Notes under the pieces: model-generated
What the model saw: the letters and a program-made list of their open reading frames with translations, nothing else
Told to the model about the DNA's origin: nothing
Database searches by the model: none
Shown: positions 8,648 through 44,572 of the stretch, in pieces
Position numbering within the stretch: position 1 is the stretch's first letter
Layout: every line of letters starts with the position of its first letter
Assembly: GCA_902801025.1 (NCBI GenBank)
Contig: CADCGZ010000001.1
Coordinates: 11,091 to 75,090 of the forward strand
Reading direction: 5' to 3'
DNA from: an uncultured bacterium
Lineage (GTDB): Bacteria > Verrucomicrobiota > Kiritimatiellia > RFP12 > UBA1067
DNA: 64,000 nucleotides
Made by a program: the position numbers and the translations under genes

Positions 8648-8650
8648 ATC

Positions 8651-20600: not shown

Positions 20601-23600
20601 CGTGGGGCTATGCCAACTACATCGGCACCGCCCATCTGTCGATCTACACCCCGCGTGACGTAACGGTGACCGACGAGCTCTACCTGACTGGCGAGCCGCC
20701 GAAGGTCGTGATCTTCATCGAGGACACCGACATCAACCGCAACGAGATTCCCGACTGCCTTGAAGACGCGGACGTTAGCTCGTCCTCTGCCGCCTCCGGC
20801 GACACGGACCGCGACGGCCTTCTCGACGAGGAAGAGCCGAGCTACGCCACCGAGTCGACAATCTGGGATACCGACGGCGACGGCATGCCCGACGGATGGG
20901 AAGTCAAGTTCGCCGACCTCGACCCGAACTTCAACGACGCAGTCGAGGCGGCAGAAGGCGACGTGATGGCCTTTGTCAAGCAGGACTGCACGATCGTGAC
21001 GGTTAGGAACACCGACGGCTCCGATGCCGTCAACTACATCCTGAAGGAAGGCCAGTTGCCGCCTGTCAGGGGAGACTCCATCGACGGGTACTCGCTCTAC
21101 GTTCCGTACGACTACCCCGTCGTCACGAGCAACGGCGTCGAGAGCTGCTACGGACGCGGCGCCGAGGTGCAGCTCAAGGCGGCGGCCGGCACGACGAACC
21201 GCGTCATCGACGTCTCGTCTGGCAAGGTCGTGCTTGTCCACTGGCAGGTGTACGACGAGTTCGGCTTCAATCCTCGGACGGCGAACCCAGTCGCCTTCGC
21301 CAACGGAACCGCCGTCAACACCAAGGAGTTCACGGCGCTCGACAAGTATCTGGTCATCCGCTACCTCGAGGCGCTTGGGCTTTGTAGCGAGGACGAGGTC
21401 AATGTCAAGGGCCAGTGGGCGCAGTATTCGCTCAGGCCGTTCGACAGCGACAACGATCTCGACGGCATTGCGGACGGCTGGGAGCTCTACGTGATGTTCG
21501 GCCATGGCGGCGCTCAGGAACTTTCGATGGAGCCGAGCCCGAAGGTCATCAGCCCGTGGGTCTTCGACGACAGGTCGATGGATCACGACGGCGACAAGCT
21601 CGCGGACGTCCATGAGTACGACCGCGGCAACTACCCGACCGATCCCTGGGACGTGGACAGCGACGGAGACGGCGTAACCGACTACTTCGCCTGGAAGTAC
21701 CATCTCAAGGGCACCGACGGCGTCAAGGACTTCGACGGAGACGGCCTCTCCAACTACGTCGAGTATCTGCTCGCCGAAGTGTTCTCGATAGCCGAATTCT
21801 CGCCGGACGACGCCTTCAGCGTGAACCCGAACGTTTCCGACTACTTCTATCGCCTCAACGAGCTCTATGTCGGCGAGATCTTCACGGATCACGATCGCGT
21901 CTGGGACGTCTGGGAGTCTGGATACTTCGCCAAGGAGGACGATGTCTCGCCGTATGTCTATGACGAAATGCTCGATCCCGACGGCGACGGGTGGTCGAAC
22001 TACTCCGAGTTCCAGGCCGGCACTGCGCCGACGAAGCTTGGCTCTCTCAGCGTCGACGCGATCCAGATGGACGAGTACCCGGTGCCGACGATCGAGCTCA
22101 AGCTCTCCTACAACGGCAACCAGTCCGTCGGCGACAAGGCAGTCGTCGTCAAGGCGTGGAGCGACCCGAAGCTCGTGACCATTCCCGACGCCGTCTGGAC
22201 GCTTGGCGGGCAGGGCAACGTCTCGGTCACCGAGAACGGCAACTCCAACATAGTGACCGGCGTCAAGTACTTCGGCATGAACCCGATGCGCGAGATGCTC
22301 GTCCACCTCTCGCCCGGTAGCGTCGTCCCCGGATCGGTCAAGTTCGAGTTCAAGGATCTTGCCTGGGTGCTCTACAACGAGCTTACGGAGCAAGGCTACC
22401 TCAACGACCCGGTGACCGCTCTCTGGGAGGGCGGAATCATCGACCAGCAGCGCAACGACAACTCCGGACTTGGCGACATCGTCAGCCAGGACGAAACGAC
22501 CAAGTCGCTCGGCACTATTGACTACGCGACGGGCGAGATGAAGGTAGACTTCGCCGCGTTCTCGGAATACTTCGCCATCGTCGGCGACATTTCCGGGCGA
22601 GTCACGGGCAACGGCTGGCTCTCGATCTACAACCTGCAGAAGAGCTATGTCCGCGTCAACTGGCAGTCGAAGCTGATAGCCGGCAGCACGGTCACGACGT
22701 ACTACCTCTCCGAGGCCGACAAGCGTTCTGCCTCCAACAACTCGCTTGGCCACGTCAAGGAGGGTCTGAACACGTTTGTCGCGTTCTACGATCTCGACGG
22801 CGACGGCATGTACACGGCGGGTGAGCCGTACGGCTGCGCGGTCGGCGTCGACGTTGGCTGGAACTATGCCCGCGCCGAGATCGAACTGACCGACACGCAT
22901 CCGGTCTCTGCCCGTATCTGCTGCATCACAGGCGCGGCCGGCGGCGCCGCGGCGGCCGGCTCGACAGGCGGCGGATCTTCCGACAGCACGCTCGGCCAAA
23001 GCGACCGTAAAGTCCTCTGGGGAACCGAGCATGGCGACATTCCCCCGGAGATGCTTCTCGTGAGCCAGGAAACCGGTGGCAAGTATATGCACATCCGCGT
23101 CGTCCGTACGCTGATCGACGGCAAGGACTGCACGCTGTACAACGTGCCCGCAAGGGTCGTCCTCGACAAGGAGTATCTCAGCGTCGACAGCGTACGCTAC
23201 CTCACCGAGGCCGACTTCCTTGCGAACGGAGCGCTTGACATCGACTGGCAGGACCTTGCCAACGACCTCAGCAAGGCCAACGTCAACGGCCTCGCGATTT
23301 CGAACGTGACCTATCGCATTGTCATGGGCGAAGGCGACGTCTCGAACTCCGCGACGAACAACTGCGTCGGCGCGTTCAATCGCTGGTTCGACTCGCTGTC
23401 CGTCTACAATGCCTCGAAGCCGATCCTCCTTGACGACGACCAAATGATTACCGCCGTCTCGCCGACGTTCAAGTGGGCGATTCCGAACGGGCTTGGCACC
23501 TATACGGCGTTCCGCATCGAGATTACCGGCGATGGCTTTGCCTGGGATTCCGGGTTCCAGAGGATGCCGCCGCGCATCATGGATCCAGGCAAGGACTACA

Positions 23601-28362: not shown

Positions 28363-29064
28363 ATGAACAAGAAGCTTATGACATTTTCCATTGCGATGCT
28401 TGCTGTTGCAGTGGCGTTTGCCGCCCCCAGGACTTCGAAGAAGCCGGTGGCCACTGACGACGATGCGCCTACGACTGGCAAGGAGGCGAAGATCATGCTC
28501 GACCAGTTCCCGAAGCTTGGCCGCCAGTCCACTCTTTCGGCGCCGGCCCTTCAGGGCGGCTCGATTATCGGCGCATGCTATACGAAGCCGCGCAAGTGGA
28601 TCGTCCTTGAGGCGAAGTATACGACTTTCGTGAAATGGCAGGACCAGCTCACCTTCACTTGGCACGTCCTCCTCGAGACGAAGAGCGCGACCGAGAACAA
28701 GGGCAACAAAGAAGGGCTCGCCCCCTATTCCTACTTCACGGCCTCCACGACCTACCAGAACATTCCGCAGGGTTCGCATGCGGCGTCCGTATGCCTGCAT
28801 CCGTCCTACCTCGAACGCTACGGCGAGGCGAAGGCCATCGGTCTCGTCATCACCAACGCGAAGGGCGAGATTCTGCAGGGCGACAGCGAGAGCGAGATCA
28901 ACGGAATCGCCAAGCACACGAAGTGGTGGGAGAACCAGGACATCATGAACAAGCAGCAGGCCGACGGCAAGCCCATGATCGAGCGCCGCCAGGGGCTTAT
29001 GGATCGCTCGAAGACGATCTGGGCCCTTGTGAACCCGAACGACTACGAGCAGGTCGCGCAGTAA
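28363..29064 (+). CDS. secreted protein, first gene of the pilus-like cluster (occupies the position of Amuc_1102 in the Akkermansia cluster)
   Basis: 233 aa. Signal peptide MNKKLMTFSIAMLAVAVAFAAP. The family assignment rests on synteny and size only. Confidence 0.75.
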   Translation: MNKKLMTFSIAMLAVAVAFAAPRTSKKPVATDDDAPTTGKEAKIMLDQFPKLGRQSTLSAPALQGGSIIGACYTKPRKWIVLEAKYTTFVKWQDQLTFTWHVLLETKSATENKGNKEGLAPYSYFTASTTYQNIPQGSHAASVCLHPSYLERYGEAKAIGLVITNAKGEILQGDSESEINGIAKHTKWWENQDIMNKQQADGKPMIERRQGLMDRSKTIWALVNPNDYEQVAQ

Positions 29065-29065
29065 T

Positions 29066-29118
29066 GGGGTAACGGGGAACGGGAACCGGGTAACGGGGAA
29101 CGGGGAACGGGTAACGGG
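29066..29118 (+). repeat. array of 8 G-tracts (GGGGTAAC/GGGGAAC/GGGTAAC, ~7-bp period): canonical G-quadruplex motif on the + strand
   Basis: G3-4 runs start at 29066, 29074, 29081, 29088, 29095, 29102, 29109 and 29116, separated by 3-4 nt. Located between the stop at 29064 and the pilM ATG at 29133. Confidence 0.85.
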
Positions 29119-29132
29119 AACGGAAACTTTCT

Positions 29133-30770
29133 ATGGCTAAACGATACCTAACATTAGACATCGGCGCTTCCGCGGTGAAGCTTGCCGAATACGAAGGCGG
29201 GAAAGGCGGCCTGACGCTCGTCAACTACGGCATCGCCGCCCTCGCCGCTCCACTCGACGCCGGCAACGCGGGCGCGCTCCTCTCGCCGGCGCTCCTCGAG
29301 ATCGTCCGCGAGAAGGGCATCAAGCCGGGTCCAGTCGCCATCTCGATTTCCGGGCAGATGGTGTTCCCGCGCTTCGCGTCCATCGCGGCCGCCGGAGGTG
29401 CGGACCGGTTCGACCAGATGGTCCGTTTCGAGATCGAGCAGAACATTCCGTTCCCGATCGACGAGATGATCTGCGACAGGCAGGTTCTCGGCGACAACGA
29501 AAACGGCGAGAAGAACGTGATGATCGTCGCCGCGAAGATCGACCAGGTCGAGGACATCGTGGCCGCCGTGCGTGGCGCGGGATTCACGCCGGAGCTCGTG
29601 GACGTCGCGCCGATCGCCCTCACGAACGTGCTTCGCCACGCGGGCGCCGCAGACGGCGGGTGCTGCGTCGTCCTCGATATCGGCTCCAAGACGACGTCGC
29701 TCGTGATCGTCGACGGCGACAAGCTCTACAACCGCTCGATCCCCGTCGCGGGCAACACGATCACGAAGGAGATATGCTCCGCGCTCGGGTGCACGCCGGA
29801 GGAGGCGGAGGAATACAAGCGCGCCGCCGCGTACGTCGCCCTCGGCGGTGTCGTAGAGGACGAGGACGCGACGCGCGACCGCGTGTCCAAGGTCTGCCGC
29901 GCGGTGATGACGCGCCTTCACGCCGAAGTGTCGCGTTCGATCAACTTCTACCGTTCGCAGCAGGGCGGGAGCGTCCCCGTGAAGCTCTACATCACGGGCG
30001 GCACCGCGCTTCTTCCGCAGCTTGACCGCTTCTTCGCCGAAAGTCTCCAGCTCGAAGTCGAGTACGTTAATCCGTTCGACGTCGTCGGCGTCGGCCCCAG
30101 GATCGACGCCGAGGCGCTTGAGGGCGATGCAACGCAGCTCGCGGCGACGGTCGGCCTTGCCCTTCATCTGGCAGGCCACGCGACGTTTGCGATAAATCTC
30201 CTGCCGCCCTCTTTGGTGAAGGAACGCGCCGACATCGCGAAGATCCCGTTCGTGGCCGTTGGCGCCGTATCGCTTGTCGCGGCACTTGTGCTCGTGATGC
30301 TCGCCGCCAACAAAGGCGCCGCCGAAGCGGAGGCCAAGAGTTCGGCTGTCTCGGCCGAGGTGTCGCGTCTCCGCTCCGTGGAAGCCAAGGTCAAGGAAGC
30401 GATTGCGGAAGAGGAGCAGGTTACCGCCAAGGCGGACTCGTTTAAGGCGCTCTTTGCGAAGCGCAGTCTTCCCGTAGCGAAGATCATGGCGATTCGCTCC
30501 GCCCTCGGCAACGAGATGTGGATCGAGAAGTGGGAGGGCGACCGCATCACCGTTCGCGGCTGGGCGGACGACCTCAAGACGCTCGTCTCGCGCACGAAGA
30601 CGGGCGGCTCCACGGCCGCGCAGATAATCGAGGCCCGGCTCAAGGGGTCGCCGGTGGTTGATCCGGCGTCAGTCAAGATCGAGTCGATGACCGATGTCGG
30701 CAAGGACGCTGCGCTCAAGCAAATCGTCGTCGTCGCCAAGTTCAAGTTCGGGAAGGGAGAAGAGCGATGA
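29133..30770 (+). CDS. pilM: PilM-like actin-fold ATPase fused to a PilN-like membrane/coiled-coil segment (Amuc_1101-like)
   Basis: 545 aa. The N-terminal YLTLDIGASAVKLAEYE and VLDIGSKTTSLVIVDG motifs are typical of PilM/FtsA. A TM helix (IPFVAVGAVSLVAALVLVMLAA) sits at ~aa 370, followed by a PilN-like tail. Confidence 0.88.
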   Translation: MAKRYLTLDIGASAVKLAEYEGGKGGLTLVNYGIAALAAPLDAGNAGALLSPALLEIVREKGIKPGPVAISISGQMVFPRFASIAAAGGADRFDQMVRFEIEQNIPFPIDEMICDRQVLGDNENGEKNVMIVAAKIDQVEDIVAAVRGAGFTPELVDVAPIALTNVLRHAGAADGGCCVVLDIGSKTTSLVIVDGDKLYNRSIPVAGNTITKEICSALGCTPEEAEEYKRAAAYVALGGVVEDEDATRDRVSKVCRAVMTRLHAEVSRSINFYRSQQGGSVPVKLYITGGTALLPQLDRFFAESLQLEVEYVNPFDVVGVGPRIDAEALEGDATQLAATVGLALHLAGHATFAINLLPPSLVKERADIAKIPFVAVGAVSLVAALVLVMLAANKGAAEAEAKSSAVSAEVSRLRSVEAKVKEAIAEEEQVTAKADSFKALFAKRSLPVAKIMAIRSALGNEMWIEKWEGDRITVRGWADDLKTLVSRTKTGGSTAAQIIEARLKGSPVVDPASVKIESMTDVGKDAALKQIVVVAKFKFGKGEER

Positions 30771-31834
30771 ACCTGTCCAAGAACCAGATAGTGATGCTCG
30801 CGATAGGCGGAGTTGCGCTTGTCGCCTCGGCCGTGCTTGGATATTTCGCATTTAGCGCCTACTCCGCGAAGTCCGAGGCGGAGGATGCTTTCGAAAGCGA
30901 TTCCGCCGCGGTTCGCGCCTTGCTCGGCGCCGCGATAAGCCCAGACGCCGCGAGCACAAAGGCGGTGAAAGACAACAGCGCCGCCCTCGCGGGCTGGACG
31001 GAGGCCGCGCTTTCGACGGCTTCGGCAGGCGACCGCGTCGTCGAAGCCGACGTCAACGAGGCCGCCTTCAAGCAGAAGCTCGTCGACGAGGCTCGCGCCC
31101 TTTCCGCTCTCCCCGGCGGCGTCGATGGCAAGATCGTCAAACCCGACTTCGCGTTCGGCTTTCCCGATTTCGTGACGGGCGACAAACTTCCCGAGAGGGA
31201 GAAGCTTCCGCAGCTCCAGCGCCAGTGGGCCGACATCCGCACTGTCGTCGAGGCGCTCGCCGACTGCGGAATCGTGGAGATTGTCAGGGTCGAGCCAATC
31301 CTTGCGAAGCAGCCCCAGGCCAGCGAGCAGCAGAAGGACGCGAAGACGAACAGGCGTCAGCGCAGGCGGAAGGACGCCGAGGAGGCGAAACCCGCCTATA
31401 CGGAGGAGAAGTACGCAATCGACTTCCGTGCGAAGCCGGCGGCGCTTGTCAAGGTCGTAAACGCGTTTGCGACGTCGCAGCGTTTCCTCGTCGTCGAGAC
31501 GCTGGACTTTGCGCGCGAAGGCGACATGATCGGCAAGGCCCTCGGCGAGGGCGACAAGAGGGGCGCGTCCGAGCAGCAGTCCTCGCGTCCGCGGCGGAGG
31601 CGCCGCGGCGAGCAGACCGGATTCGGGGAGGAGAAGCCGGCCGAGGGCGCCGAAGAGCCGGACAATGGCGTCGTGAACGATCCCGAGAAGGAGGAGCCGT
31701 TCCTCGTGCATGCAGTTGTTGCGACGTATGATTTCGGTTTGGCGGTGAAGCCAGTCGTAGGCGAGAGCGCCGAGCTCCCTGCGGCCGAGGGCGACGCCGA
31801 GGGAGTCAAGGAAGAGAAGGAGGGCGAGGAATGA
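30767..31834 (+). CDS. Amuc_1100-family pilus-like protein
   Basis: ATGA overlap with pilM. N-terminal TM helix. ALADCGIVEIVRVEP and YAIDFRAKPAALVKVVNAFATSQRFLVVETLDFARE parallel my recollection of Amuc_1100 (LAECGLSKFIKVYRP; PLEIAFQGDRESVLKAMNAITGMQDYLFTVNSIRIRNE). The C-terminal strand FLVHAVVATYDF parallels VFVQVSLNLVHF. Confidence 0.75.
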   Translation: MNLSKNQIVMLAIGGVALVASAVLGYFAFSAYSAKSEAEDAFESDSAAVRALLGAAISPDAASTKAVKDNSAALAGWTEAALSTASAGDRVVEADVNEAAFKQKLVDEARALSALPGGVDGKIVKPDFAFGFPDFVTGDKLPEREKLPQLQRQWADIRTVVEALADCGIVEIVRVEPILAKQPQASEQQKDAKTNRRQRRRKDAEEAKPAYTEEKYAIDFRAKPAALVKVVNAFATSQRFLVVETLDFAREGDMIGKALGEGDKRGASEQQSSRPRRRRRGEQTGFGEEKPAEGAEEPDNGVVNDPEKEEPFLVHAVVATYDFGLAVKPVVGESAELPAAEGDAEGVKEEKEGEE

Positions 31835-32916
31835 TCTCCAGGAATGCCGAAGGCGGCTTTTTCGCCGCACATTGGGACTGGCTTGTGGCAGCGGTCGGAG
31901 TCGCTGCGCTCGTTGTCGGTGTGGTGCTTTTCGTGATGACGGGCGGCGGCGATCCCGATGAGAACGCGAGAGTGGCCGTCGACCGGCTGAAATTGGCCAA
32001 GCGCTCCGAGACCGGTGTCAAGCCCGTGGACATGTCGCAGTACGAGCGTGCGCTCCAGTTTGCCGTCAAGCCGGCGACGATTTCCGAAATCGAGGATGCG
32101 GGCGGGAACTTCCTCGTTTCCGAGCGGCGCGTGTTCTGCAAGTCCTGCAAGAAGCCAATCAAGGACGGCTCGAAGACCTGCCCGTTCTGCGGCGAGGCCC
32201 AGCCAGAGCCCGAGAAGGTCGTGGTCGACTCCGACGGCGACGGACTGCCCGACTGGTGGGAGGAGAAGTACGGGCTTGATGTTACGCAGAACGACGCCGA
32301 TGCGGATAAAGACGGCGATGGCTTCACCAATGCCGAGGAGTATGCGGCGGGAACGGATCCGTCCGACAAGAACTCGCATCCGGACTACTTCGATTCGCTT
32401 AAGCTCGTGCTTCCGCTGAAGGAGACGGTCCTCCCGTTCTACCTGCGCTCGTACATGAAGACCCCGAACGGAATGAAGCTCGAGTTCTTCGATCCGAAGC
32501 GCCGCAACGACTACGGGAAGAACGGATATCGCTACTCCGTGCTCGTCGGCGAGGCGATCGGCGACACTGGCTTCACCGCTAAGGCGTTCGAGCAGAAGGA
32601 AAAGAAAGTCAAGATCAAGGGCTCTAACGTCGAGCGCGCCGTCGATGTCTCGGCCGTGACGATCGTTCGCAAGAAAGACGGCAAGGAACTCGAGCTTGCG
32701 CTCGACGAAAAGCGCAAGCCGGTAGACGTGCAGGCGACGCTCGAATTCAGCCGCGGCGAGACGAAGACCTTCGTCGTTGTGCCGGGCGGGACGATTGATT
32801 TGTACGGAAACAAATACAAGGTTATGGACGTGAAAAGAGTCGAAAAGGGTGCAAAGGTCACTCTTGAAGACGTGCTACTCGGCAAAATTCGTACTGTAGA
32901 GACCCTTGAACAGTGA
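31831..32916 (+). CDS. membrane protein with zinc-ribbon and TSP3-like repeats (Amuc_1099 position)
   Basis: ATGA overlap with the upstream gene. TM helix WLVAAVGVAALVVGVVLFVM. CKSCKKPIKDGSKTCPFCGE. DSDGDGLPDWWEEKYGLD..DKDGDGFTNAEEY. Confidence 0.7.
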   Translation: MISRNAEGGFFAAHWDWLVAAVGVAALVVGVVLFVMTGGGDPDENARVAVDRLKLAKRSETGVKPVDMSQYERALQFAVKPATISEIEDAGGNFLVSERRVFCKSCKKPIKDGSKTCPFCGEAQPEPEKVVVDSDGDGLPDWWEEKYGLDVTQNDADADKDGDGFTNAEEYAAGTDPSDKNSHPDYFDSLKLVLPLKETVLPFYLRSYMKTPNGMKLEFFDPKRRNDYGKNGYRYSVLVGEAIGDTGFTAKAFEQKEKKVKIKGSNVERAVDVSAVTIVRKKDGKELELALDEKRKPVDVQATLEFSRGETKTFVVVPGGTIDLYGNKYKVMDVKRVEKGAKVTLEDVLLGKIRTVETLEQ

Positions 32917-32928
32917 GAAGAATTAGGA

Positions 32929-32934
32929 TATAAT
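32929..32934 (+). promoter_or_regulatory. -10-like TATAAT located 5 nt upstream of the secretin ATG (possible leaderless transcript)
   Basis: GGATATAATACACAATG. The hexamer is at 32929-32934 and the ATG at 32940. Confidence 0.4.
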
Positions 32935-32939
32935 ACACA

Positions 32940-35900
32940 ATGCAAAACATTAGGAGCATGTTCGATATGACGAACCTCAGGACATACGTCGCGCTGACGG
33001 CGACCATCGCTTTCATCGCGCTCGGCCAGAGCATGAACGCGCAGGACGATCTTGACGATCTGCTTGCCGACCTCGAAGGCGAGGCCCCCGCAGCGACACC
33101 AGCCGCGCCTGCACCAGCCGCCGAGGAACCGGCACCGGCGCCCGCAGCTGAAGAGCCTGCGCCAGCGGCCGAGGAACCGGCACCGGCGCCCGCAGCTGAA
33201 GAGCCTGCTGCCGAGGAGCCCGCACCGGCGCCAGCCGCCGAGGAGCCCGCGCCTGCTGCCGAAGAACCGGCACCAGCACCTGCGGCTGAAGAGCCCGCTG
33301 CTGAGGAGCCCGCACCTGCTGCTGAGGAGCCGGCGGCCGAGGAGCCTGCACCTGCAGCTGAAGAGCCCGCACCTGCTGCCGAAGAGCCGGCGGCCGAGGA
33401 GCCTGCACCTGCAGCTGAAGAGCCCGCGGCTGAGGAGCCCGCTGCCGAGGAGCCTGCACCCGCGCCAGCGGCTGAAGAGCCCGCTGCCGAGGAGCCCGCG
33501 CCCGCTGCCGAAGAGCCCGCGCCCGCGCCTGTGGCTGAGGAACCTGCTGCCGAGGAGCCTGCAGCTGAGGAACCTAAGGCTGATGACAAGAAGATTGATG
33601 ATACGCTTAGTCTTCTCGACGAACTCGAGGCCGAGGAGCCCGTCGCAACCGATCAGATCGGGGAGGCGGGCGTCTCGCCCGCGCCGGCGGCCAAAGCCGA
33701 CGAACCGCTTCCAGAGCCCGTCGCTGCGACTGAAGCCGTCGAACCGGCTTCTGCTGCCGAGTCGGAAGAATCGGCCGTAAAGCAGCGGCTTCAGAACAGG
33801 AAAGACGGCGGTCTCATCGGCGAGATCCTGACGGTTGAAAAACTGCGTCGCGAGGCGATGGACACCCAGGCGATGCGCGAGATTTCGGAGGCCCGCGCTG
33901 CGATGACCAGTGGCGAGTATGCCGAAGCCGTCCGTCACTATGGCATTGCCGCTAAGCTCCTGAACGACAGTGAGAAGTCCAAGATCTTCAAGGCCGAGTG
34001 CACTGAAGGCATTGCCGAAGGGCTTTACAGGGCCGCGCTCGAGGAAGAGCGCACCGGTCGCCGCGCGCGTGCGATAAAGTACATGGAGAAGGCCGTCGAC
34101 CTTCGCCACCCGAAGGCCCGCCGCCAGCTTGAGGCCTGGCTTTCCACTGTAGACCCCGATGCCCTCAAGACCGATGTCTCCGAGATTTCGCATCGTCGCA
34201 ACGATGCCGACTACAAGGCCCGTCGCGAAATCGAGCGCCGCCACCTGAAGCGCGCCAGTCAGTTGCTTGCCCAGCGCGAGATCGACCGCGCGCTCGACGA
34301 GTGCGAGCTTGTCCTCGTGAAGGACCCCTACAACCAGGAGGCCCTTCGCCTCAGGGACTCCATCGTCCGGAAGAGCGACGTCATTCTCAAGAAGGAGCGC
34401 GAAGTCGCCCGCGAGAAGTGGATAGCCGACGTCGACAAGGCGTGGCGTCCGAACTACGCCACCGACGCCAAGGACCGCGACGACAAGAAGGGTGCCACCA
34501 TAAAGGCCAAGCCCGACCCCAACAACAAGGAGCGCACGATCGAGCAGACGATCATCCAACGCATGAAGGAGATGCGTCTCCCGGCGATTTCGTTCAAGCC
34601 GCCGGCGACGATCATCGACGCGGTCGAGTATTTCCGCGGCGCTTCGAAGGACTTCGACCGTCCCGAGATCCCGCTTGAGCAGCGCGGCTTCAACTTCGTC
34701 CTCAAGACGCCCGAGGCCGTTCGCATGAAAACGGCCGCAGCGGCGGGCGAGGATGCTGATGACTTCTCCGACACTGGTTCCGACGAGGCGGCGGATGCCG
34801 GCGGGCCGCTTGGCGTTCCTGTCATCCCGATGATCACCGCGAGCGACATCACGTTCTACGACGCCCTCAAGCTCGTGTGCGAATCCGTCGAGTACAAGTT
34901 CACCGTGCAGGGTCCGATCGTCATGGTCATGCACAAGGACATGTCGGTCGAGGAACTCGTCACGCGCTCCTTCCCGGTTCTCTCGTCCTTCACCGAGAAG
35001 ATGGAAAGCGCGAAGGGCGACATCACGACGATGCGCTCGAGCAATAGCGGCTTCGGCGGCGCATCGCGCAAGAACGACGACGGCGAGGAAAACGAAGAGC
35101 GCGACTGGAAGGAGTTCTTCTCGCTCCTCGGCGTCAAGTGGCCCGAGGGCAGCTCGATCTTCTACGTGAAGACCGTCGGCCGGCTCTTCGTAAAGAACAC
35201 CCAGGAGAACCTCGCCGAGTTCGAGAACGTCCTCGCCCAGCTCAACCAGCAGGTCACGCTCGTCGAGATCGAGACGAGGTTCATCGAGGTCTGCCAGGAC
35301 GACCTGACCTCTCTCGGTTTCGAATGGATTCTCAACAGCGACTATTCACTTGGCCTCAACAAGCACCTCGGTAGGGCGCTTGGCATTCGTGGCGGCGCGT
35401 TCAGCGGTCTCGGCGGTGAAATTGGCACTGGCAGTTCCTCCACTTCGACTACTGGCGGCGATACGACGACTATCACGACGCAGGCCGGCGGGATTATCAC
35501 TTCCCAGGGTACGGGCACTGCGGTTTCCGGGGGCAGCAGCTCTGGCACTGCGTCTGCTTTGTCGCAAGACGCTTCTTGGGTGCGTAGCTCTGGTGCAAAA
35601 AGGAACATTGGCATCAATTCGGTTGACGGTGAGACTTATGCAAGCGGGCATCGATATCTCTCGGATGTCGGGAATCATATTTCCGGTGAATCGAAGTCGA
35701 CAAATGATCGCTTTATGCGGCTGAATGCCTTCCTTGGCAGTGCCGACCTCTCGATGATCCTGCACATGCTTTCGCAGCGCAGCGACACCGATCTCCTCTC
35801 TGCTCCGAAGGTGCTGACGCGTCCGGGCGAAGAGGCCGTCATGAAGGTCGTGACGGAGTACATCTACCCGACCGACTACGACGTGCAGCTCCAGTCGAGC

Positions 35901-36611
35901 TCTTCCGGCAGTTCGGGCAATTCGGGCGGCAGCCAGTCGGCCATTCTCGCCGTCGTTGAGCCCCAGAGCTTCACGATGCGCGAAGTGGGCGTCATACTCC
36001 AGGTCACCCCGACCCTGACTGACGACGGCAACGTCGTTGACCTCGAGCTCAACACCCAGGTCGTCGACGAGCCGACATGGAAGAACTACGGCATGAGGAT
36101 CCCGTTCACGGGCAATGCCTCGGCCGGCAATCTCACGATCGGAATAGGCGACGGGCCGTTTGCGGAACAGGGCTACACGCCGTCTGCCGCTGTAATGGAG
36201 CGCATTGTCACGCGCTATTGGGAGGCGGTCGCCAACATGTTCGAGAACCTCTCAGGCGGCAACCAGAACATTACCTACTACGATGCACCGATGGAGCAGC
36301 CGTTCTTCCACGTCCGGTCCGTCGATTCGAAGATAAGCGTGTATCCTGGGGCGACGATCGTCATGGGCGGCCTTATCACCGAGGCCCGCAAGGCGATGGA
36401 CGACAAGATTCCGTTCCTTGGCGACATTCCGTTCCTCGGACGCTTCTTCCGCAGCCATTCCGAGCAGACCTCGAAGCGCAACCTCCTCATCTTCGTCACG
36501 ACCCGCATCGTCGACGGACGTGGTCGTGAGATGCACAACGATGGTTTTGAGATCTCCGATCAGTCCGCTGGTGCCGACGCGAAGGAGGCGCCCGAGATGC
36601 CGGCTAATTAA
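32940..36611 (+). CDS. secretin (GspD/PilQ family, Amuc_1098-like) with a long acidic Ala/Pro/Glu N-terminal spacer and TPR-like region
   Basis: 1223 aa. Signal peptide ending SMNA/QDD. C-terminal secretin core: DLLSAPKVLTRPGEEA, VGVILQVTPTLTDDGNV, IVMGGLI, IPFLGDIPFLGRFFRS and NLLIFVTTRIVD. Confidence 0.9.
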   Translation: MQNIRSMFDMTNLRTYVALTATIAFIALGQSMNAQDDLDDLLADLEGEAPAATPAAPAPAAEEPAPAPAAEEPAPAAEEPAPAPAAEEPAAEEPAPAPAAEEPAPAAEEPAPAPAAEEPAAEEPAPAAEEPAAEEPAPAAEEPAPAAEEPAAEEPAPAAEEPAAEEPAAEEPAPAPAAEEPAAEEPAPAAEEPAPAPVAEEPAAEEPAAEEPKADDKKIDDTLSLLDELEAEEPVATDQIGEAGVSPAPAAKADEPLPEPVAATEAVEPASAAESEESAVKQRLQNRKDGGLIGEILTVEKLRREAMDTQAMREISEARAAMTSGEYAEAVRHYGIAAKLLNDSEKSKIFKAECTEGIAEGLYRAALEEERTGRRARAIKYMEKAVDLRHPKARRQLEAWLSTVDPDALKTDVSEISHRRNDADYKARREIERRHLKRASQLLAQREIDRALDECELVLVKDPYNQEALRLRDSIVRKSDVILKKEREVAREKWIADVDKAWRPNYATDAKDRDDKKGATIKAKPDPNNKERTIEQTIIQRMKEMRLPAISFKPPATIIDAVEYFRGASKDFDRPEIPLEQRGFNFVLKTPEAVRMKTAAAAGEDADDFSDTGSDEAADAGGPLGVPVIPMITASDITFYDALKLVCESVEYKFTVQGPIVMVMHKDMSVEELVTRSFPVLSSFTEKMESAKGDITTMRSSNSGFGGASRKNDDGEENEERDWKEFFSLLGVKWPEGSSIFYVKTVGRLFVKNTQENLAEFENVLAQLNQQVTLVEIETRFIEVCQDDLTSLGFEWILNSDYSLGLNKHLGRALGIRGGAFSGLGGEIGTGSSSTSTTGGDTTTITTQAGGIITSQGTGTAVSGGSSSGTASALSQDASWVRSSGAKRNIGINSVDGETYASGHRYLSDVGNHISGESKSTNDRFMRLNAFLGSADLSMILHMLSQRSDTDLLSAPKVLTRPGEEAVMKVVTEYIYPTDYDVQLQSSSSGSSGNSGGSQSAILAVVEPQSFTMREVGVILQVTPTLTDDGNVVDLELNTQVVDEPTWKNYGMRIPFTGNASAGNLTIGIGDGPFAEQGYTPSAAVMERIVTRYWEAVANMFENLSGGNQNITYYDAPMEQPFFHVRSVDSKISVYPGATIVMGGLITEARKAMDDKIPFLGDIPFLGRFFRSHSEQTSKRNLLIFVTTRIVDGRGREMHNDGFEISDQSAGADAKEAPEMPAN
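33075..33575 (+). repeat. coding low-complexity tandem region (AEEPAPAP/AAEEPA units, ~165 aa)
   Basis: Imperfect repeats of GCYGARGARCCNGCNCCNGC-type units read directly from the sequence. The antisense ORF 32858-33589 over this region is an artefact. Confidence 0.9.
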
Positions 36612-36696: not shown

Positions 36697-37302
36697 ATGA
36701 AAGTCGCACTAACGGGAGGGATTGCCTGCGGCAAATCCCTCCTTTCTAAGTTTTTGAATGAGCTCGGCGTCGAGACGCTTGACGCCGACGATGTCGTGCA
36801 CGAGTTTCTCCCCGACCCCGAGGAGCGTCGCCGCATCGCGGCTGAAGTCTTCGCCGACCCCGAGAAGCGCCGCGCACTCGAGGCGAAGATACATCCAGTC
36901 GTCAAAGAGAAAATTGACGCTTGGCTTGACAGGACGAGCGGGACTAACAGGACCACCGGGACAGACGTGACAAACGGGACTATCGCCTGTCCCGTTAGTC
37001 TCGGTGGTCTCGTCTGTCCTGTTCGTGTCGCTATAATTCCGCTTTTGTTTGAAGCACACTGGGAGAAAAATTTTGATATAATATGTTGTGTCGCTTCCAC
37101 ACGCGAGAGCCAGATCGAACGTATGACGGCGACGCGGGGGATGACGCTTGCGGAGGCCGAAGCCCGTCTTGCGGCACAGATGCCAGTCGAGGAAAAGGCC
37201 AAGCGTTCGCACTACGTCATTCATAACAACGGCACAGCCGATGAACTTCGCGCAGAGGCGCAAAAATTCGTCGCCTGGTTGCATGAGCAGAAATCCAATT
37301 AA
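36697..37302 (+). CDS. coaE: dephospho-CoA kinase with a 30-codon repeat insertion
   Basis: P-loop VALTGGIACGKS. IHPVV, IPLLFE and the C-terminal HYVIHNNG are typical CoaE. The insertion lies between AWLDR and VAIIPLLFE. Confidence 0.88.
   Translation: MKVALTGGIACGKSLLSKFLNELGVETLDADDVVHEFLPDPEERRRIAAEVFADPEKRRALEAKIHPVVKEKIDAWLDRTSGTNRTTGTDVTNGTIACPVSLGGLVCPVRVAIIPLLFEAHWEKNFDIICCVASTRESQIERMTATRGMTLAEAEARLAAQMPVEEKAKRSHYVIHNNGTADELRAEAQKFVAWLHEQKSN
36940..37029 (+). repeat. 10 x 9-bp in-frame array inside coaE: five GGGACnnnC-type words followed by five reverse-complement GnnnGTCyC-type words
   Basis: GGGACTAAC AGGACCACC GGGACAGAC GTGACAAAC GGGACTATC | GCCTGTCCC GTTAGTCTC GGTGGTCTC GTCTGTCCT GTTCGTGTC. 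It encodes GTNRTTGTDVTNGTIACPVSLGGLVCPVRV. Confidence 0.9.
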
Positions 37303-37510: not shown

Positions 37511-39070
37511 ATGGCAGAAGAACTCGATGTGTTTGCGAGCGCCGTCACCAAGAGCGCCGCGCCGAAGCCCCAGCAACCCCAGCCGCCGCAGCAGGGGGGC
37601 AGCGGCAATAATGGCCAGAAAAAGCGGTTCCACAACCGCGGCGGCAAGAACTTTAACCGCGGTGGCGGCAAGCCGAACAACTCCCCGATTCGCGGCGCGA
37701 ACGGCGAGGAGAGCGTAAATCCGCTTCTCAACGCCCCGCTTCCGACGGAACAGCGAGTGCAGGAGGTCGACGCCCCCGCGAACCCGAACCGCAATCCCGA
37801 CCTCCCGGAGTACCGCCTCGCCGACATCCAGACGTGGACTGCGCCGGAGATAGTCGAGCGCATGATGCCCGGCGCCGATCCCGAGGAGCTCGGCACCTAC
37901 CGCAAGCACGAGCTCATCTTCGCCGCTATACGCAGATATCTCGCGAACGGCGGCGCGGTGCTTGCCTCCGGCTGCCTTGAGATCGTCCGCGAAGGGCACG
38001 GCTTCTTGAGGTCCGCGAAGAACAACTTCCTCGCATACCCCGAGGACGTCTTCGTCACGCAGCAGCAGATCCGCCGCCATGCACTCAGGACGGGCGACAT
38101 AGTGGAGGGCCCGATCCGCGATCCGCGCGACCGCGACCGATTCTTCTGCCTCGGCAACGTCGCGACGGTCAACGGCAAGGAGCCGTCCGTCGCCGCCCGC
38201 GTCATACACTTCGAGAACCTGACCGCCACGTTCCCGACGCGGCGCATCATCCTCGAGACCGACCCGAAGGAGTTCTCGACGCGCGTCGTCGACCTCTTCA
38301 CGCCGATCGGCTTCGGACAGCGCGGCCTCATTATCGCGCCGCCGCGCGTCGGCAAGACGGTTCTTCTCCAGAAGATGGCCAATGCGATTTCCAAGAACTA
38401 CCCCGAGGCGATGCTCATCATCCTTCTCATCGACGAGCGCCCCGAGGAAGTCACCGACATGCAGCGCAACACGAAGGCGATGGTGCTTTCGTCTACGTTC
38501 GACGAAGAACCTCAGCACCACGTGAGCGTCACCGAGATGGTCCTCGAGATGTCGAAGCGCCAGGTCGAGAATGGGCGCGACGTGATTATTCTCATGGACT
38601 CGCTGACTCGCATGGCGCGCGCCTACAACACGGTGCAGCCGCATTCCGGCAAGATCCTGACAGGCGGCGTCGACGCGCTCGCGATGCACAGGCCCAAGAG
38701 GTTCTTCGGCGCGGCAAGAAACATCGAGGGCGGCGGCTCGCTCACAATCATTGCAACAGGCCTCGTCGACACGGGTTCCAGGATGGACGAGGTCATTTTC
38801 GAGGAATTCAAGGGCACCGGCAACATGGAAATCGTCCTCGACCGCGGGCTTGCGGACAAGCGCATATACCCGGCGATCGACATCGACAAGTCCGGGACGC
38901 GCAAGGAAGACCTCCTTCTGGATCCGGTCGAACTCGAGAAGACGTGGGGCATGCGCCGCATCCTTTCCGACGCAGGCCCCGAGAGCGCGATGAAGTCGGT
39001 GTTGAACTCGCTCAAGAAGACAAAATCCAATCCAGAGTTCCTGCTTGCCCTCGACCTCAAAAACCTCTAA
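37511..39070 (+). CDS. rho: transcription termination factor Rho with a ~95-aa Gln/Gly/Asn/Arg-rich N-terminal extension
   Basis: 519 aa. GFGFLR-type motif (EGHGFLRS), Walker A (PPRVGKTVLLQ), and the DSLTRMARAYN and IDKSGTRKEDLL motifs are present. The N-terminal extension reads PKPQQPQPPQQGGSGNNGQKKRFHNRGGKNFNRGGGKPNN. Confidence 0.95.
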   Translation: MAEELDVFASAVTKSAAPKPQQPQPPQQGGSGNNGQKKRFHNRGGKNFNRGGGKPNNSPIRGANGEESVNPLLNAPLPTEQRVQEVDAPANPNRNPDLPEYRLADIQTWTAPEIVERMMPGADPEELGTYRKHELIFAAIRRYLANGGAVLASGCLEIVREGHGFLRSAKNNFLAYPEDVFVTQQQIRRHALRTGDIVEGPIRDPRDRDRFFCLGNVATVNGKEPSVAARVIHFENLTATFPTRRIILETDPKEFSTRVVDLFTPIGFGQRGLIIAPPRVGKTVLLQKMANAISKNYPEAMLIILLIDERPEEVTDMQRNTKAMVLSSTFDEEPQHHVSVTEMVLEMSKRQVENGRDVIILMDSLTRMARAYNTVQPHSGKILTGGVDALAMHRPKRFFGAARNIEGGGSLTIIATGLVDTGSRMDEVIFEEFKGTGNMEIVLDRGLADKRIYPAIDIDKSGTRKEDLLLDPVELEKTWGMRRILSDAGPESAMKSVLNSLKKTKSNPEFLLALDLKNL

Positions 39071-39085: not shown

Positions 39086-42000
39086 ATGAAGAAGATCCTT
39101 GCATTGATCGCTTCGGCGTGGACCGCGCTCGCGGTTGGCGCCGCCGTTCAGCTGACAGCGTCAGTCTATGACGACGATACAGGCGGAACCTACACGGGAA
39201 GCGGGGTTTTCGTGGAGGTGACATATTCATGGTGGCAGGGCGAGCGACAGGAGACGGGGGTTGACGATGTATCTGTCACGATAGGCGAATACAACAGCGC
39301 GAGCTACGCTATTGTCCGCGGTTGCATCACGAACGAGAACATCGACCGCGACAAGTGCAAGTGGGAAGTCGTCAGCGACAGTTCCAATCTCGGCTTTGCA
39401 GAGGATGCCAATGGCGCGGACCTTGCGGCTGGATATCTCACCAATCGCGTAGTTGGCGTGCGTGCGGACGGGACCGGAACGTATGGCAAGGCGGCGATAG
39501 TCCTGCATGTCGCGCGGCGGCACTGCACGTTGACGTACAACGCAAACGGCGGCAATGCCTCCGGACTGCCTGGCGCCGTCGAGATTGTCAGCGGCGTATC
39601 GACGCGGCTTACATCTGTGGTTCCTACGCGTTCTGGCTATGCGTTTGGGGGATGGTCGAAGTCCGCTACCAGCATTTCGGCAATGTACAGCCCTGGGGCT
39701 TCGGCGACGTTCTCGGAAGACACGACGCTTTATGCAGTTTGGGTCGCCAACGACTACTCGGTTGCCTTCAACGCCAATGGCGGCACGGGTACAATGGCTA
39801 CGCAGGCGATGACCTATGGGACGCCTACAAGTCTTTCCATCAACGCGTTCACGCGGCCTGGATATGCGTTTGCAGGGTGGTCGTTGACGGCAGACGGCGA
39901 GGTCGCATACACCGACGGGGCCGCAGTTACCGGAATCGCGACTGGTTTAGGCGAGACAGTCATGCTCTATGCCGTCTGGACCCCCGAGGAATATCTGCTG
40001 ACGGTAGATCCAAATGGCGGCGTCTATAAAGGGAGTTCGGAGACAACGGCCTTGTCGCCATCGATCAAGTATGACACGAAGCTGTGGAACAACATTGGCG
40101 CAGCGACTCGGACCGGCTATGCGCTCAGGGGATATTACGCCGACCGCGAAGGCGAGACGCGCGTATACGATGAAAAGGGCAAGAATGTCGCTGCTGGCGG
40201 CTATTGGTCTGCGGCGTATTCGAATGGCGTCTGGAGATGTCTGGGCGACCTGAAGGTCTATGCGCTGTGGTTGCCTGTCGTCTACAAGGTTTCCTTCAAC
40301 GCCAATGGTGGCAATGGCACGATGCCGGCGCAGCAGCTGACTTATGACGCGAAAACCGCGCTGACTTTGAATGCCTTTACCCGCACGGGGTTTGCTTTCG
40401 CCGGCTGGGCGCAGTCCGCCGATGCGGACAAGGCGAGCTACGCCGATGGTGCGGAAGTCCTGAACCTGGCCGACACTGCCAATGCGACTGTCGCGCTCTA
40501 TGCCGTCTGGGAGGCGAGTCGCTACTATGTCGCCTTTGCCGCGAACGGCGGCAAGGGAACGATGAACGCGCAGAACGCGACTTATGGAGTCGAGACCGAC
40601 CTTGAAACAAACGCATTTACAAGGGTGGGGTATGCATTCGGTGGCTGGGCAAAGACGCCAGGCGGGGCCGCTGTCTATGCTGACGGAGCGTCCGTTTCAA
40701 ATCTGACGGACGTCGCCGACGCTACCAACACTCTATATGCCGTGTGGAAGGCCAATGACTATTCCGTCGCCTTTTACGCGAACGGCGGCACGGGGAAGAT
40801 GGATCCGCAGAATGCGACTTACGGGAAGGCGCTCGTCCTTGAGCCCAATACCTTCAGCCGGACGGGTTACGAGTTTGGTGGATGGAAGGCGACGGACGGG
40901 TCGATATACGTAGACGGCGCGACCGTCTCTAACTTGACGACGATCGCCGGCGCCGCAGCTCCGCTCTATGCAGTCTGGACTCCAAAATCGTACGACCTTT
41001 CGTTTGATGCTGACGGCGGCACAGGCGAACTCGCCCCCCGTACGGTTTCCTACGACTCCGCGTATGGCGATTTGCCGACGCCGACTCGTCCTGGCTACGA
41101 TTTCGTCGGATGGTTTGACGAGTCCGGCAAGGAGGTTACGAAGGATACGCGTGCAAAGTCGACGAGCGCAGGGACATTGAAGGCCCGCTGGGCATCGATC
41201 GCCTACAACGTAGTCTTCGACGCGAATGGCGGTGAGGGGTGGAAGGAACCGTTCGAGGCAATCTGCCGCTACGACGAGACGCTCACGCTGCCGGACGAGA
41301 CCTTCGTGCGCGCGGGCTATACATTAGACGGATGGGATTGCGGCGGAACCAATTATGTCTGCGGCGCCATCGTGTCCAACCTGACGACGGCGGCAGGCGG
41401 CCGCGTCACATTTGCCGCGCAATGGAAGCCGGTTGTCTACAATGTCGTCTTCGACGGAAACGGCGGAACATGTGAAACCAATTCGGCTTCGTCCGTCACG
41501 AATGTAGTGACATACGGCGAGGAGCTTGAAGTGCCGGCGTTTGTCCGCCTCGGCCGCGTTCTCAACGGATGGAATTGCGCGGACGCAGCCTATCCTACCA
41601 ACGCCGTAGTGTCCAACTTGACGGCGACGGCTGGCGGGACAGTGAAGATGAGGGCCAATTGGAATCTTGGCCCCAACGATTTGTCGGAGGCGCTGGATAT
41701 TGACAACCTTGTGTTTGAGAACGACGGCGGAGCGTGGACTGTCCGAGATGATGCCGCCGCCGTGAGCGGCACATGCATCGCCGTGACGGGAGACGGCGTA
41801 ACGAATGAAGTCGCCCTTGCGACGGAGACAGACAGTGGCGGTACGATTAGCTTCTGCTGGAAGTTTGCCAGCGTAGATTCCACATCGGCAGCGTTTGGGT
41901 TTAGACTTTACGATTCTACGGAGGGCAAGACCCTCTGGTCTACAAACTATTCTCGGGACACGGCTTCGACAAGTCCGTTTTACGCGGATTATTCGCCTCA

Positions 42001-44572
42001 TTGGGAGCCGTTTTCCACCAACATTGTTGCGGATGGCATTCATAAGCTTCAATGGGAAATAACGGAATCGCATTCCGGCACCGACGACGAAGGCATAATG
42101 CTTGACCATGTGACATGGGAGCCTGCGGGTGGTGCAGCCGGCATTGCCGCAGTGGAAATCCCCGTTGCGGTCCCCGGTCTTGTCTACGACGGCACTAAAA
42201 AGATCGGCGTTGACGAGAATGCGGCCTATACGCTTGTCGGTAATGTCGCGACAAACGCGGACGGATATCTCGCGACTGCGACGCTGAACAACAAGGCCGC
42301 AAGCGTCTGGGCAGACGGCACGACGGACGACAGGGAGATCCCGTGGCGAATCGCTACCAAGGTCATAGATCTTAGCGGCGTTGCGTTTGCGGATGCATCG
42401 TGGAAGTTCGACGGCAAATCCAAGAGTATCAATGCCTCCGGCGTGCCCGCTGGTGTAGAGGTGACCTACGATGGCAATAATCGAACAGAGGTTGGCGAAT
42501 ACACGGTGACAGCGTGGTTCAAGAGCACTTCCACTGGAAATCTGCTGACGAACATGACGGCTACGCTCACGATAGAGGCGCTGAGCGTCGGCGAGCCATC
42601 AGCCGTTGCGGGACTCGTCTACGACGGCACGGCGAAGACTGGCGTTGTCGAAAGTGTCGGTTACACGCTTGCCGAGAACGTTGCGACGGCCGCAGGCGAT
42701 TATGTCGCGACGGCAACGCTTGACGCCGGATATGTCTGGTCCGACAACACGACTGGACCGAAGGAGATTTCGTGGTCGATTGCGCGCGCTACATACGACA
42801 TGGGCGACGTGTTGTTTGAAGACGGGACGTTTGAGTTCGACGGCACGAATCTGTATCTTGCCGTGGAGGGAGATCTTCCCGATGGCGTTGACGTCTACTA
42901 CCTGTACAACGGGAAGTCCGGCGTCGGCTCTTATACGGTCATTGCCAGGTTCACGGCATCCGATGCCGTCAACTACGAGCCGATTCCAGATCTTGCGGCC
43001 ACGCTGACTATCGTGCTCCCTCCGACGAAGATTGAGGTGCCGACGGCCGTGTCGGGGCTTGTCTACGACGGTGCGGCGCAGATCGGCGTCCTTGAAGGCG
43101 TTGGATACGCCCTTGCCGGGAACGTCGAGACGAACGCGGGCTCGCATGCCGCTACCGCGACGCTGGAGGACGGGTATGTCTGGGCTGACGGCACGACGGT
43201 TGCGCAGACAATCCACTGGTCTATTGCCAAGGCAACATACGACATGAGCGGGGTGTCGTTCGCGAGCAAGACGTTTGAGGCCGATGGCACGAAAAAATCT
43301 ATTGCCATTACGGGAACGCTTCCTTCTGGCGTGAAGGTGTCTTATGTTGGCAACGGCCAGACCGAGCCCGGGACATACACGGTGACGGCGAAATTCACGG
43401 GTGACGCGAACAACTACAATTCGATTTCAGATAAAAAGGCCACACTGACCATAACGAAGAAGTCTGATCCTGTCCCGCCAGGCCCAGGCCCTGGGCCAGA
43501 ACCCGATCCTGATCCAGTGGACGAGACGCCCGATCTGTATCCGAGCGGAGTCGCGGTGCTTGGCGCATTCACGGCCGAGAAGGCAGAGACCTACAACGGC
43601 TGGCTTAAGGATGATGCCGAGCGAGTCGTCGCATTGCTGACAGTGAAGACGACAGCGGCAAAATCTGGCAAGCAGACTAAGTCGACGATCACAGTGACGC
43701 CTGTCAATGGAAAGAAGTACACAAAGAAAACGTCTTTCGATCCAGGGGGGAATCCGACCGACGAATTTGGCATCGTCTACGGCTCGCGTGGGCTCCTTGG
43801 CACATTTGGCGGTTATTCCGTCGAGGCCGGTGTAGATGTCTACAAATCCAAGATTTCCGAGGTAAAGGCCCTTGCTGCGAATATTCCAGTTGCGACGCAT
43901 ACGTTCTCCGTCGACACTGGGAACGGCATGGCGGTGTTCTCGGCCGTGATTGCCAAGACTGGCAAGACGAAAGTCCAGGGATATCTTGAAGACGGCGCAA
44001 AGATATCGGTCTACACTACCGGTGCGCTTGGGGAAGAATACTTTGCCGTCCCTGTCGTTTCGCCAAAAGCGGCGACGCGGTGTGGGTTTGTCCTCTGGTT
44101 CCCCCTTGACGGCGGTTCGCCGACACTCGCAAACTTCTACGATTCGAACTGGACGGCTTCGCTGTCTGGTGGATCATACGCCCTGGCCAACGGTGAGCAT
44201 GTCTTTGACTTCGAGGAGCCGGACTTCCGCAATTATCTCGCTTCAGTCGACGGCTTTGCCGTTGCGCCCGTTGGAGCCGTGTTTACCGTTAAGCGCGGCA
44301 AATGGGACGCCGGCAAGACGGTCGGCCGTCTCAAGGTTATCGATGGCGCACCGGCTGTCACCGGAACTTCGTCGCCGTCGAATCTGTCCGCGCTTAAGCT
44401 GACGTATACTGCGAAGTCGGGGCTTGTGAAGGGCTCGTTCAAGCTGTACTATATGGATGGCAAGCGGCTTAAGAATGACACTGTGACGGTTACGGGCGTT
44501 GTTGTCGACGGCAAGCTATTCGGAAGTGGCACAATCAAGAAGCTCGGCTCCTTTGCCGTAACGGCGGAATGA
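39086..44572 (+). CDS. large surface protein (1828 aa): ~10 Listeria-Bacteroides (InlB B / Flg_new) repeats, then YDG-containing MBG-like repeat pairs, a Pro-rich linker and a C-terminal domain
   Basis: GGAGG RBS at 39075-39079. Signal peptide [19 protein letters not shown]. Repeats of the type [24 protein letters not shown]...LYAVW. Repeated VxGLVYDGTxKxGV...ATLTI units. Linker [19 protein letters not shown]. Confidence 0.9.

Follow-up and report, generated by a model that had tools for sequence, protein, structure and literature searches.

Within a 64,000-nucleotide (nt) stretch of DNA from an uncultured Kiritimatiellia bacterium (assembly GCA_902801025.1, contig CADCGZ010000001.1, positions 11,091 to 75,090; hereafter the window), five genes on the forward strand between positions 28363 and 36611 are very probably the orthologues, in Kiritimatiellia, of the Amuc_1102-Amuc_1098 locus of Akkermansia muciniphila (MUL2 plus a secretin) and take the form of a divergent pilM-N-O-'P'-Q operon. 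The cluster opens with the gene of an Amuc_1102-like protein of 233 amino acids (aa; 28363-29064), followed by those of a predicted PilM::PilN fusion corresponding to Amuc_1101 (545 aa; 29133-30770), an Amuc_1100-like protein with a predicted PilO fold (355 aa; 30767-31834), an Amuc_1099-like connector in the PilP/GspC position (361 aa; 31831-32916) and an Amuc_1098-like predicted secretin (1223 aa; 32940-36611). Read from the sequence, ATGA overlaps join the 545-aa gene to the 355-aa gene (30767-30770) and the latter to the 361-aa gene (31831-31834), and a gap of 23 nt (32917-32939) separates the connector from the secretin gene; coordinates and junctions are exactly those given in a preliminary description of this DNA. 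In Akkermansia, the Amuc_1102-1098 genes have been named a type IV pili cluster (PMC10688800).

The same description had likened the five genes to the Amuc_1102-1098 cluster, and profile searches bear this out. Each protein matched its own model among the NCBIfam models of the Akkermansia cluster (NF042424, NF045709, NF038287, NF042425 and NF042912), in the expected order: Amuc_1102_rel for the 233-aa protein (E = 2.5e-6, 27.2 bits, cut-off 55), Amuc_1101_fam for the 545-aa protein (E = 6.8e-114, 381.9 bits, cut-off 650), Amuc_1100_fam for the 355-aa protein (E = 1.2e-21, 77.5 bits, cut-off 180), Amuc_1099_fam for the 361-aa protein (E = 9.4e-20, 71.4 bits, cut-off 50) and Amuc_1098_fam for the 1223-aa protein (E = 7.1e-119, 398.1 bits, cut-off 750). 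Because only Amuc_1099_fam was matched above its curated cut-off, we also checked the homology in the reverse direction, using profiles of the relatives. Hidden Markov models (HMMs) built from order-wide relatives matched all five genes of a locus (L068) in a single-contig genome of 2.65 Mb presumed to be A. muciniphila (G115), with E-values from 9.7e-14 to 1.7e-145. The proteins of that locus, encoded in the same order, measure 238, 612, 317, 337 and 907 aa, sizes consistent with A. muciniphila. Structural matches came from family profiles, for which orthologues from 20 genomes of the order were aligned; these profiles were needed since single-sequence searches of the PDB with the 233-, 355- and 361-aa proteins returned nothing useful. 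With them, the first and third proteins of the cluster matched the crystal structures of Amuc_1102 and Amuc_1100, as detailed below.

By homology, the 545-aa protein is PilM covalently joined to PilN. Residues 8-345 form an actin-like PilM domain with a predicted cytoplasmic location (PilM_2/PF11104, E = 1.3e-43, 149.6 bits against a cut-off of 27), and the 545-aa protein also passes the cut-off of the TIGR01175 pilM model (169.3 bits, cut-off 133). This domain is followed by the motif INLLPP at residues 354-359, a transmembrane (TM) helix at about residues 371-392, a coiled coil and a periplasmic domain. The motif is kept as (E/A)INLLPP in 21 sequences, and the profile of the tail (A4) matches Myxococcus xanthus PilN (3jc8_Na, E = 2.5e-11, residues 3-131). 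A comparison of the tail with the Amuc_1100-family profile by hhalign aligned the TM helix and coiled coil only, at a probability of 39%, and was not used as evidence.

For the 355-aa protein, structural modeling points to a PilO fold and to homology with Amuc_1100. The AlphaFold2 model (predicted local distance difference test score, pLDDT, 74) consists of an N-terminal TM helix, long helices and two alpha-beta-beta units, with an acidic tail; its Arg/Lys-rich segments (residues 183-189 and 270-301) appear as disordered loops. Foldseek placed Amuc_1100 chains at the top (E = 2.4e-8 to 1.6e-6, TM-score 0.6-0.72 relative to the target), followed by Pseudomonas aeruginosa PilO (2rjz, E = 0.012, probability 1.0), 3jc8_Oa and 5uvr. 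The family profile (A1) matched the Amuc_1100 crystal structures 6LAD/6KNY/6LAF over almost the full length (E = 1.7e-12), and a Pfam scan of the protein gave no PilO match at the sequence level. The model fits the published description of Amuc_1100 as PilO/PilN-like (bioRxiv 10.64898/2025.12.30.696933; PMC13119276).

The connector that follows is a composite protein of 361 aa with a TM anchor at about residues 16-36. A four-cysteine zinc ribbon (C103, C106, C117 and C120; nt 32137-32190), for which a weak zinc-ribbon match was obtained at residues 102-122, precedes two calcium-binding TSP3 repeats at residues 133-179 (TSP3_bac, E = 6.5e-10), and the remainder folds into two all-beta domains at residues 190-360 in an AlphaFold2 model (pLDDT 80.7). 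We considered this protein as a PilP or GspC by fold or profile and found no support: the full-length model had no Foldseek match at E ≤ 0.001, a PDB search with the family profile gave EF-hand-like matches only, arising from the TSP3 repeats, and Pfam scans of 20 family members revealed no PilP or GspC family. Its proposed PilP/GspC role is thus a positional one.

The 1223-aa protein is a secretin by homology (PF00263, E = 4.3e-32, 111.5 bits against a cut-off of 27.5), with scores of 130 bits for the GspD model and 113 bits for PilQ. A signal peptide, a QDDLDDLL motif, an acidic Ala/Glu/Pro repeat and a TPR region with weak matches precede the secretin core, and no AMIN domain is among its Pfam matches. 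The core is interrupted by a Ser/Thr/Gly-rich insert at residues 825-877, and a Ser/Gly run starts at residue 986. The acidic segment is encoded at 33107-33583 by nested tandem repeats with periods of 15, 21, 36, 42, 48, 57, 90 and 93, which yield (P)AAEEPA units. Congeners differ in both the length and the sequence of this segment, which suggests that the repeats turn over rapidly in a disordered part of the protein, periplasmic or at the surface. At the other end of the cluster, the 233-aa protein can be assigned as an Amuc_1102 homologue by sequence comparison: its family profile (A3) matches the Amuc_1102 crystal structure 7DSZ (E = 1e-14). It carries a Sec-type signal peptide (AFA|AP), as do all orthologues, and no prepilin motif was found in it. 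An Amuc_1102-like gene leads the cluster in all 20 order relatives, as detected by phmmer or HMM.

Conservation of the cluster extends well beyond the genus. The same five genes occur in the same order in 18 of 20 order-level loci; the other two are truncated by a contig end, L050 within the third gene and L045 within the secretin gene. Two of the members were detected by HMM only. The same order was found in L068, L070 and L071, which belong to other lineages. Among 41 close relatives, 38 have a detectable member of the Amuc_1100 family, and phylum-wide the same holds for 114 of 151 high-quality genomes, corresponding to 67 of 79 genera. Named relatives are Kiritimatiellae/Kiritimatiellia metagenome-assembled genomes from goat, yak, sheep, roe deer and human gut. 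On the downstream side, the cluster is flanked on the same strand by coaE (36697-37302; Pfam CoaE) and rho (37511-39070; Pfam Rho_RNA_bind and ATP-synt_ab). Of 24 related loci, 13 have both genes downstream of the cluster, among them the presumed Akkermansia locus, while L069 has rho only and L071 coaE only; the same coaE-rho neighbors have been shown for Akkermansiaceae (PMC13174399). The other flank is formed by ackA-pta-kdsD. All five genes are under purifying selection relative to the closest relative (locus L043), with ratios of nonsynonymous to synonymous substitution rates (dN/dS) of 0.16-0.29. Together with the conservation, this rules out chance open reading frames (ORFs) and marks the five as genuine genes.

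The breadth of this comparison also changes how the unusual features of the proteins are to be read. The preliminary description regarded several of them as lineage-specific elaborations that set the cluster apart from that of Akkermansia. All of these features are present, but most proved to be clade-wide across the relatives compared. The PilN-like TM/coiled-coil tail fused to PilM is no difference from Akkermansia, because the presumed Akkermansia 612-aa protein has the same fusion, TM helix and tail. Both basic stretches of the charged insert in the Amuc_1100-like protein (QRRRKDAEE..RPRRRRRGEQ) exist, yet basic loops occupy the same two sites in Amuc_1100-like proteins order-wide. Likewise, the four zinc-ribbon cysteines and the TSP3 motif of the connector are found unchanged in all 20 order-wide relatives, and among named genomes the four cysteines and two TSP3 repeats are found in both Kiritimatiellia and Lentisphaeria; connectors of Verrucomicrobiae, Chthoniobacterales and Akkermansia have zero to two cysteines and one TSP3 repeat. 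Of the secretin inserts, the acidic one is order-wide in that an Ala/Glu/Pro stretch of 132-316 aa follows the conserved QDDLDDLL in nearly all relatives, whereas only this genome has the regular PAAEE tandem repeat, and a Ser/Thr/Gly insert of 30-84 aa is confined to the genus.

A second claim of the preliminary description was that no ATPase, platform or pilin gene lies in cis, which left it open how, or whether, a filament is assembled. Indeed, on the 79-kb contig that carries the cluster (C1), we found no match for a T2SSE ATPase or a T2SSF platform protein and, by a regular-expression scan, no prepilin-like N-terminus. Such genes are present in trans in the source genome, a metagenome-assembled genome that is 82.6% complete. 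Eight T2SSE matches all lie on other contigs; they include a PilB-PilT-PilB triple of 563, 360 and 563 aa on C66, whose PilT scores 447 bits on TIGR01420 (cut-off 319), further PilB/GspE-type ATPases on C13, C6 and C107, and Tad-type ATPases on C33 and C70. In addition, the genome encodes three PilC/GspF proteins (C44, C6 and C72), two A24 prepilin peptidases (C25 and C33) and at least 14 prepilin-like genes (eight on C44, four on C8 and further ones on C37 and C13). One locus on C44 (1437-11532; L053) has a PilC/GspF gene followed by about eight prepilin-like genes with GspG-, GspH- and ComG-like N-termini, and a gene for a GspK-like protein of 1047 aa; it is of the pseudopilus type and no ATPase gene adjoins it. 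The flanks of the 24 related loci contain no motor, platform, peptidase or pilin gene (0/24), and where genomes are complete or nearly so, over 380 kb lie between the cluster and the nearest ATPase gene. In the Akkermansia-like genome, the cluster is located at 1.28 Mb, with ATPase genes at 0.20 and 1.85 Mb. Four of six relatives examined also have the PilB-PilT-PilB triple. Given the flanks, the genomic distances and the genes in trans, separation of motor and cluster is the norm for this family rather than an anomaly, and filament assembly is possible in principle.

Based on these findings, we propose that the cluster in all likelihood builds the envelope-spanning part of a type IV filament machine, and not its motor or fiber. 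In this working model, the PilN part of the fusion and the PilO-like protein would pair in the inner membrane via their TM and coiled-coil segments. The TM-anchored 361-aa protein would fill the role of PilP/GspC and bridge to the secretin, which its beta domains would touch, with the calcium-binding TSP3 repeats and the four-cysteine knuckle serving as a rigid periplasmic spacer. On the cytoplasmic side, a PilM ring would dock a PilC-type platform and PilB/PilT-type ATPases encoded in trans, for which the PilB-PilT-PilB triple on C66 and the PilC/GspF-pseudopilin operon on C44 are candidate partners. Pilins processed by the peptidase would then be assembled into a filament, or a short piston, passing through the secretin. 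By analogy with Akkermansia, for which MUL2 is reported as important in acquiring mucin (bioRxiv 10.64898/2025.12.30.696933; PMC13174399), the machine likely serves gut Kiritimatiellae to attach to, or acquire, glycans from the host or its diet.

Several points weigh against this model. Four of the five proteins (the 1102, 1101, 1100 and 1098 types) score under the NCBIfam equivalog cut-offs; they are therefore distant homologues rather than NCBI equivalogs, and it is not certain that they function alike. For the 361-aa protein, the PilP/GspC role comes solely from the position of its gene, and the glycan role is transferred from Akkermansia via secondary citations. Furthermore, six to seven secretin loci are present in the genome, and C13 carries another PilM/N/O/P/Q-like operon (41-10068; L051). 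This operon, on the minus strand from 8080 to 3144, encodes a weak PilM match, a GspM-like protein of 199 aa and a PilQ-like secretin of 675 aa with STN and Secretin_N domains. Genes for a PilA-like prepilin (9622-10068), a sigma-54-type response regulator and a PilB/GspE ATPase that has an MshEN domain flank it, as does rpoN; the whole has the appearance of a type IVa pilus locus complete in itself. With several secretin loci and an operon that has its own ATPase and pilin, the motor and pilins of the cluster are not assignable by sequence. An attempt to assign partners by secretin count failed, as the Akkermansia-like genome too has two such loci. Finally, PilT is present in 145 of the 151 phylum genomes, and its co-occurrence with the cluster is non-discriminating because it is nearly universal.

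We weighed our model of a filament-machine scaffold against other readings of the same genes. The first, a glycan import gate, shares its anatomy and differs in cargo and in direction through the pore: a retractile filament or piston would use the secretin as the route by which large glycans or glycopeptides are drawn into the periplasm, a mechanism that has been proposed for MUL2 and mucin uptake in Akkermansia. We regard this as possible, with the balance of probability against it. It would account for the reported importance of MUL2 in mucin acquisition and for the reported transport of large mucin portions into the A. muciniphila periplasm, and it would suit a vertically conserved core locus in a phylum rich in polysaccharide specialists, a host belonging to the gut or rumen Kiritimatiellae, and the presence of the retraction ATPase PilT. 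However, all of this evidence is analogy with one organism, drawn from secondary sources, and nothing here links the cluster to glycan-degrading genes, its flanks being ackA-pta-kdsD and coaE-rho. To our knowledge, no secretin imports polymers.

Next, the cluster might be a type II secretion-like exporter, in which the PilM::PilN fusion, the PilO-like protein and the 361-aa connector would mimic GspL, GspM and GspC, respectively, and would, with the secretin and the pseudopilus encoded on C44, export folded glycoside hydrolases and sulfatases. The architecture is that of GspL-GspM-GspC-GspD, with a fused actin-like/TM/periplasmic protein, a bitopic ferredoxin-fold partner, a connector that is TM-anchored and not a lipoprotein, and a secretin. 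The secretin also scores slightly better on GspD than on PilQ, and the C44 operon places GspG-, GspH- and GspK-like pseudopilins after its GspF/PilC gene. Against this, the parts themselves match PilM (TIGR01175, above cut-off), PilN (3jc8_Na) and PilO (2rjz); GspL, GspM and GspC were not matched by sequence or fold, with no hit to a GspL or GspM model and no GspM structure among the fold matches, and the GspM-like protein of the genome belongs to the other operon, on C13. We consider export of this kind unlikely.

A broader proposal joins the synteny to the import idea. The coaE-rho-linked module would be a core machine passed down vertically from the ancestor of the Verrucomicrobiota in the broad sense (Verrucomicrobiae, Kiritimatiellia and Lentisphaeria), acting as a retraction-driven gate that admits large glycans or glycopeptides to the periplasm and not as a conventional adhesive pilus base, and the four cysteines and second TSP3 repeat of the connector would have been gained in Kiritimatiellia/Lentisphaeria, possibly as a metal-dependent spacer or switch. 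As a whole, we hold this proposal to have a low probability.

Least likely of the rivals, and in our judgment improbable, is a filament-less envelope complex, a tether or channel between inner and outer membrane without pilin or ATPase whose functional output would be the abundant, surface-exposed Amuc_1100/1102-like proteins: conservation of the PilM domain is good (TIGR01175, above cut-off), PilM is known for docking the platform and ATPases, every sampled genome with the cluster also has PilT-type ATPases, and in classical type IV pilus systems, pilMNOPQ operons commonly lie away from pilB/C/T. What speaks for such a complex is the lack of a motor or pilin gene in cis (0/24 loci), a first gene product that is Sec-secreted and not a prepilin, and the finding that the Akkermansia cluster proteins are among the most abundant in the envelope, with Amuc_1100 at the cell surface (PMC5332112).

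Taken as a scaffold for a type IV filament machine, the cluster is a known system found in a new class-level lineage and not a new kind of system. It shares with Akkermansia Amuc_1102-1098 five homologous genes in identical order and orientation, the coaE-rho genes downstream, the PilM::PilN fusion, a third protein with a PilO fold, one common TSP3 repeat and a TPR-containing secretin. Differences are nevertheless considerable. The 355-aa protein is 11-15% identical to the Amuc_1100 chains in Foldseek structural alignments, and its loops are Arg/Lys-rich whereas those of the Akkermansia protein are neutral and Ala/Pro-rich. The four-cysteine zinc ribbon and second TSP3 repeat are absent from the Akkermansia connector, and the secretin, at 1223 aa with an acidic Ala/Glu/Pro segment of about 200 residues, compares with one of 907 aa. 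Classical type IVa PilMNOPQ systems (P. aeruginosa and M. xanthus; 3jc8, 2rjz) have in common with the cluster a PilM, a PilN bearing INLLP, the PilO fold, a secretin gene in last place and an operon apart from pilB, pilC, pilT and pilA. In contrast to them, PilM and PilN form one polypeptide here, an additional gene for a Sec-secreted Amuc_1102-like protein comes first, a TM-anchored zinc-ribbon/TSP3/beta protein takes the place of a recognizable PilP lipoprotein, and the secretin has a TPR region and a low-complexity N-terminus, with no AMIN among its Pfam matches.

The main gains of this analysis are the PilM::PilN/PilO assignment, the connector with four cysteines and two TSP3 repeats in Kiritimatiellia and Lentisphaeria, and the deep coaE-rho synteny. 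Amuc_1100 from the Akkermansia cluster is a much-studied immunomodulatory protein, and the PilM::PilN/PilO/secretin anatomy supports its being a PilO-type scaffold component of the inner membrane and not a pilin. The features that vary between classes, namely the zinc ribbon, the number of TSP3 repeats, the loop charge and the secretin N-terminus, are now listed, which is useful for annotating genomes of the Planctomycetes-Verrucomicrobia-Chlamydiae (PVC) group and for deciding on a second model organism in which to study the MUL2 machine.

Further observations concern the surroundings of these genes. A G-rich tandem repeat, (GGGGAAC)x8, on the forward strand at 29067-29127 (Tandem Repeats Finder: period 7, 8.3 copies) fills the 68-nt spacer that separates pilM from the Amuc_1102-like gene. 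The array looks like a local insertion because the two genes abut or overlap in many relatives. It resembles other short word-array insertions of the same genome and could influence translation of pilM.

Elsewhere in the genome, we found paralogues of the secretin that lack its N-terminal half, at C2:34269-36209 (L056, 646 aa), C2:41475-42266 (263 aa) and C113:8559-9662 (367 aa), with phmmer E-values against the window secretin of 1.7e-98, 4.8e-14 and 3.8e-42, respectively. The 646-aa paralogue adjoins a gene with an N-terminal, radical-SAM-like CxxxCxxC motif, and a small conserved protein (MK[T]QIEVG[V/A]AVL..) is encoded near the secretin paralogues on both C2 and C113.

In the window itself, three giant ORFs around the cluster probably encode surface adhesins. 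They span 1-8214 (at least 2737 aa), 8651-24769 (5372 aa, with a TSP3_bac match) and 39086-44572 (1828 aa, with six Listeria-Bacteroides repeats, Flg_new). A further protein of 1575 aa, with a PA14 domain and seven TSP3 repeats, is encoded on contig C78.

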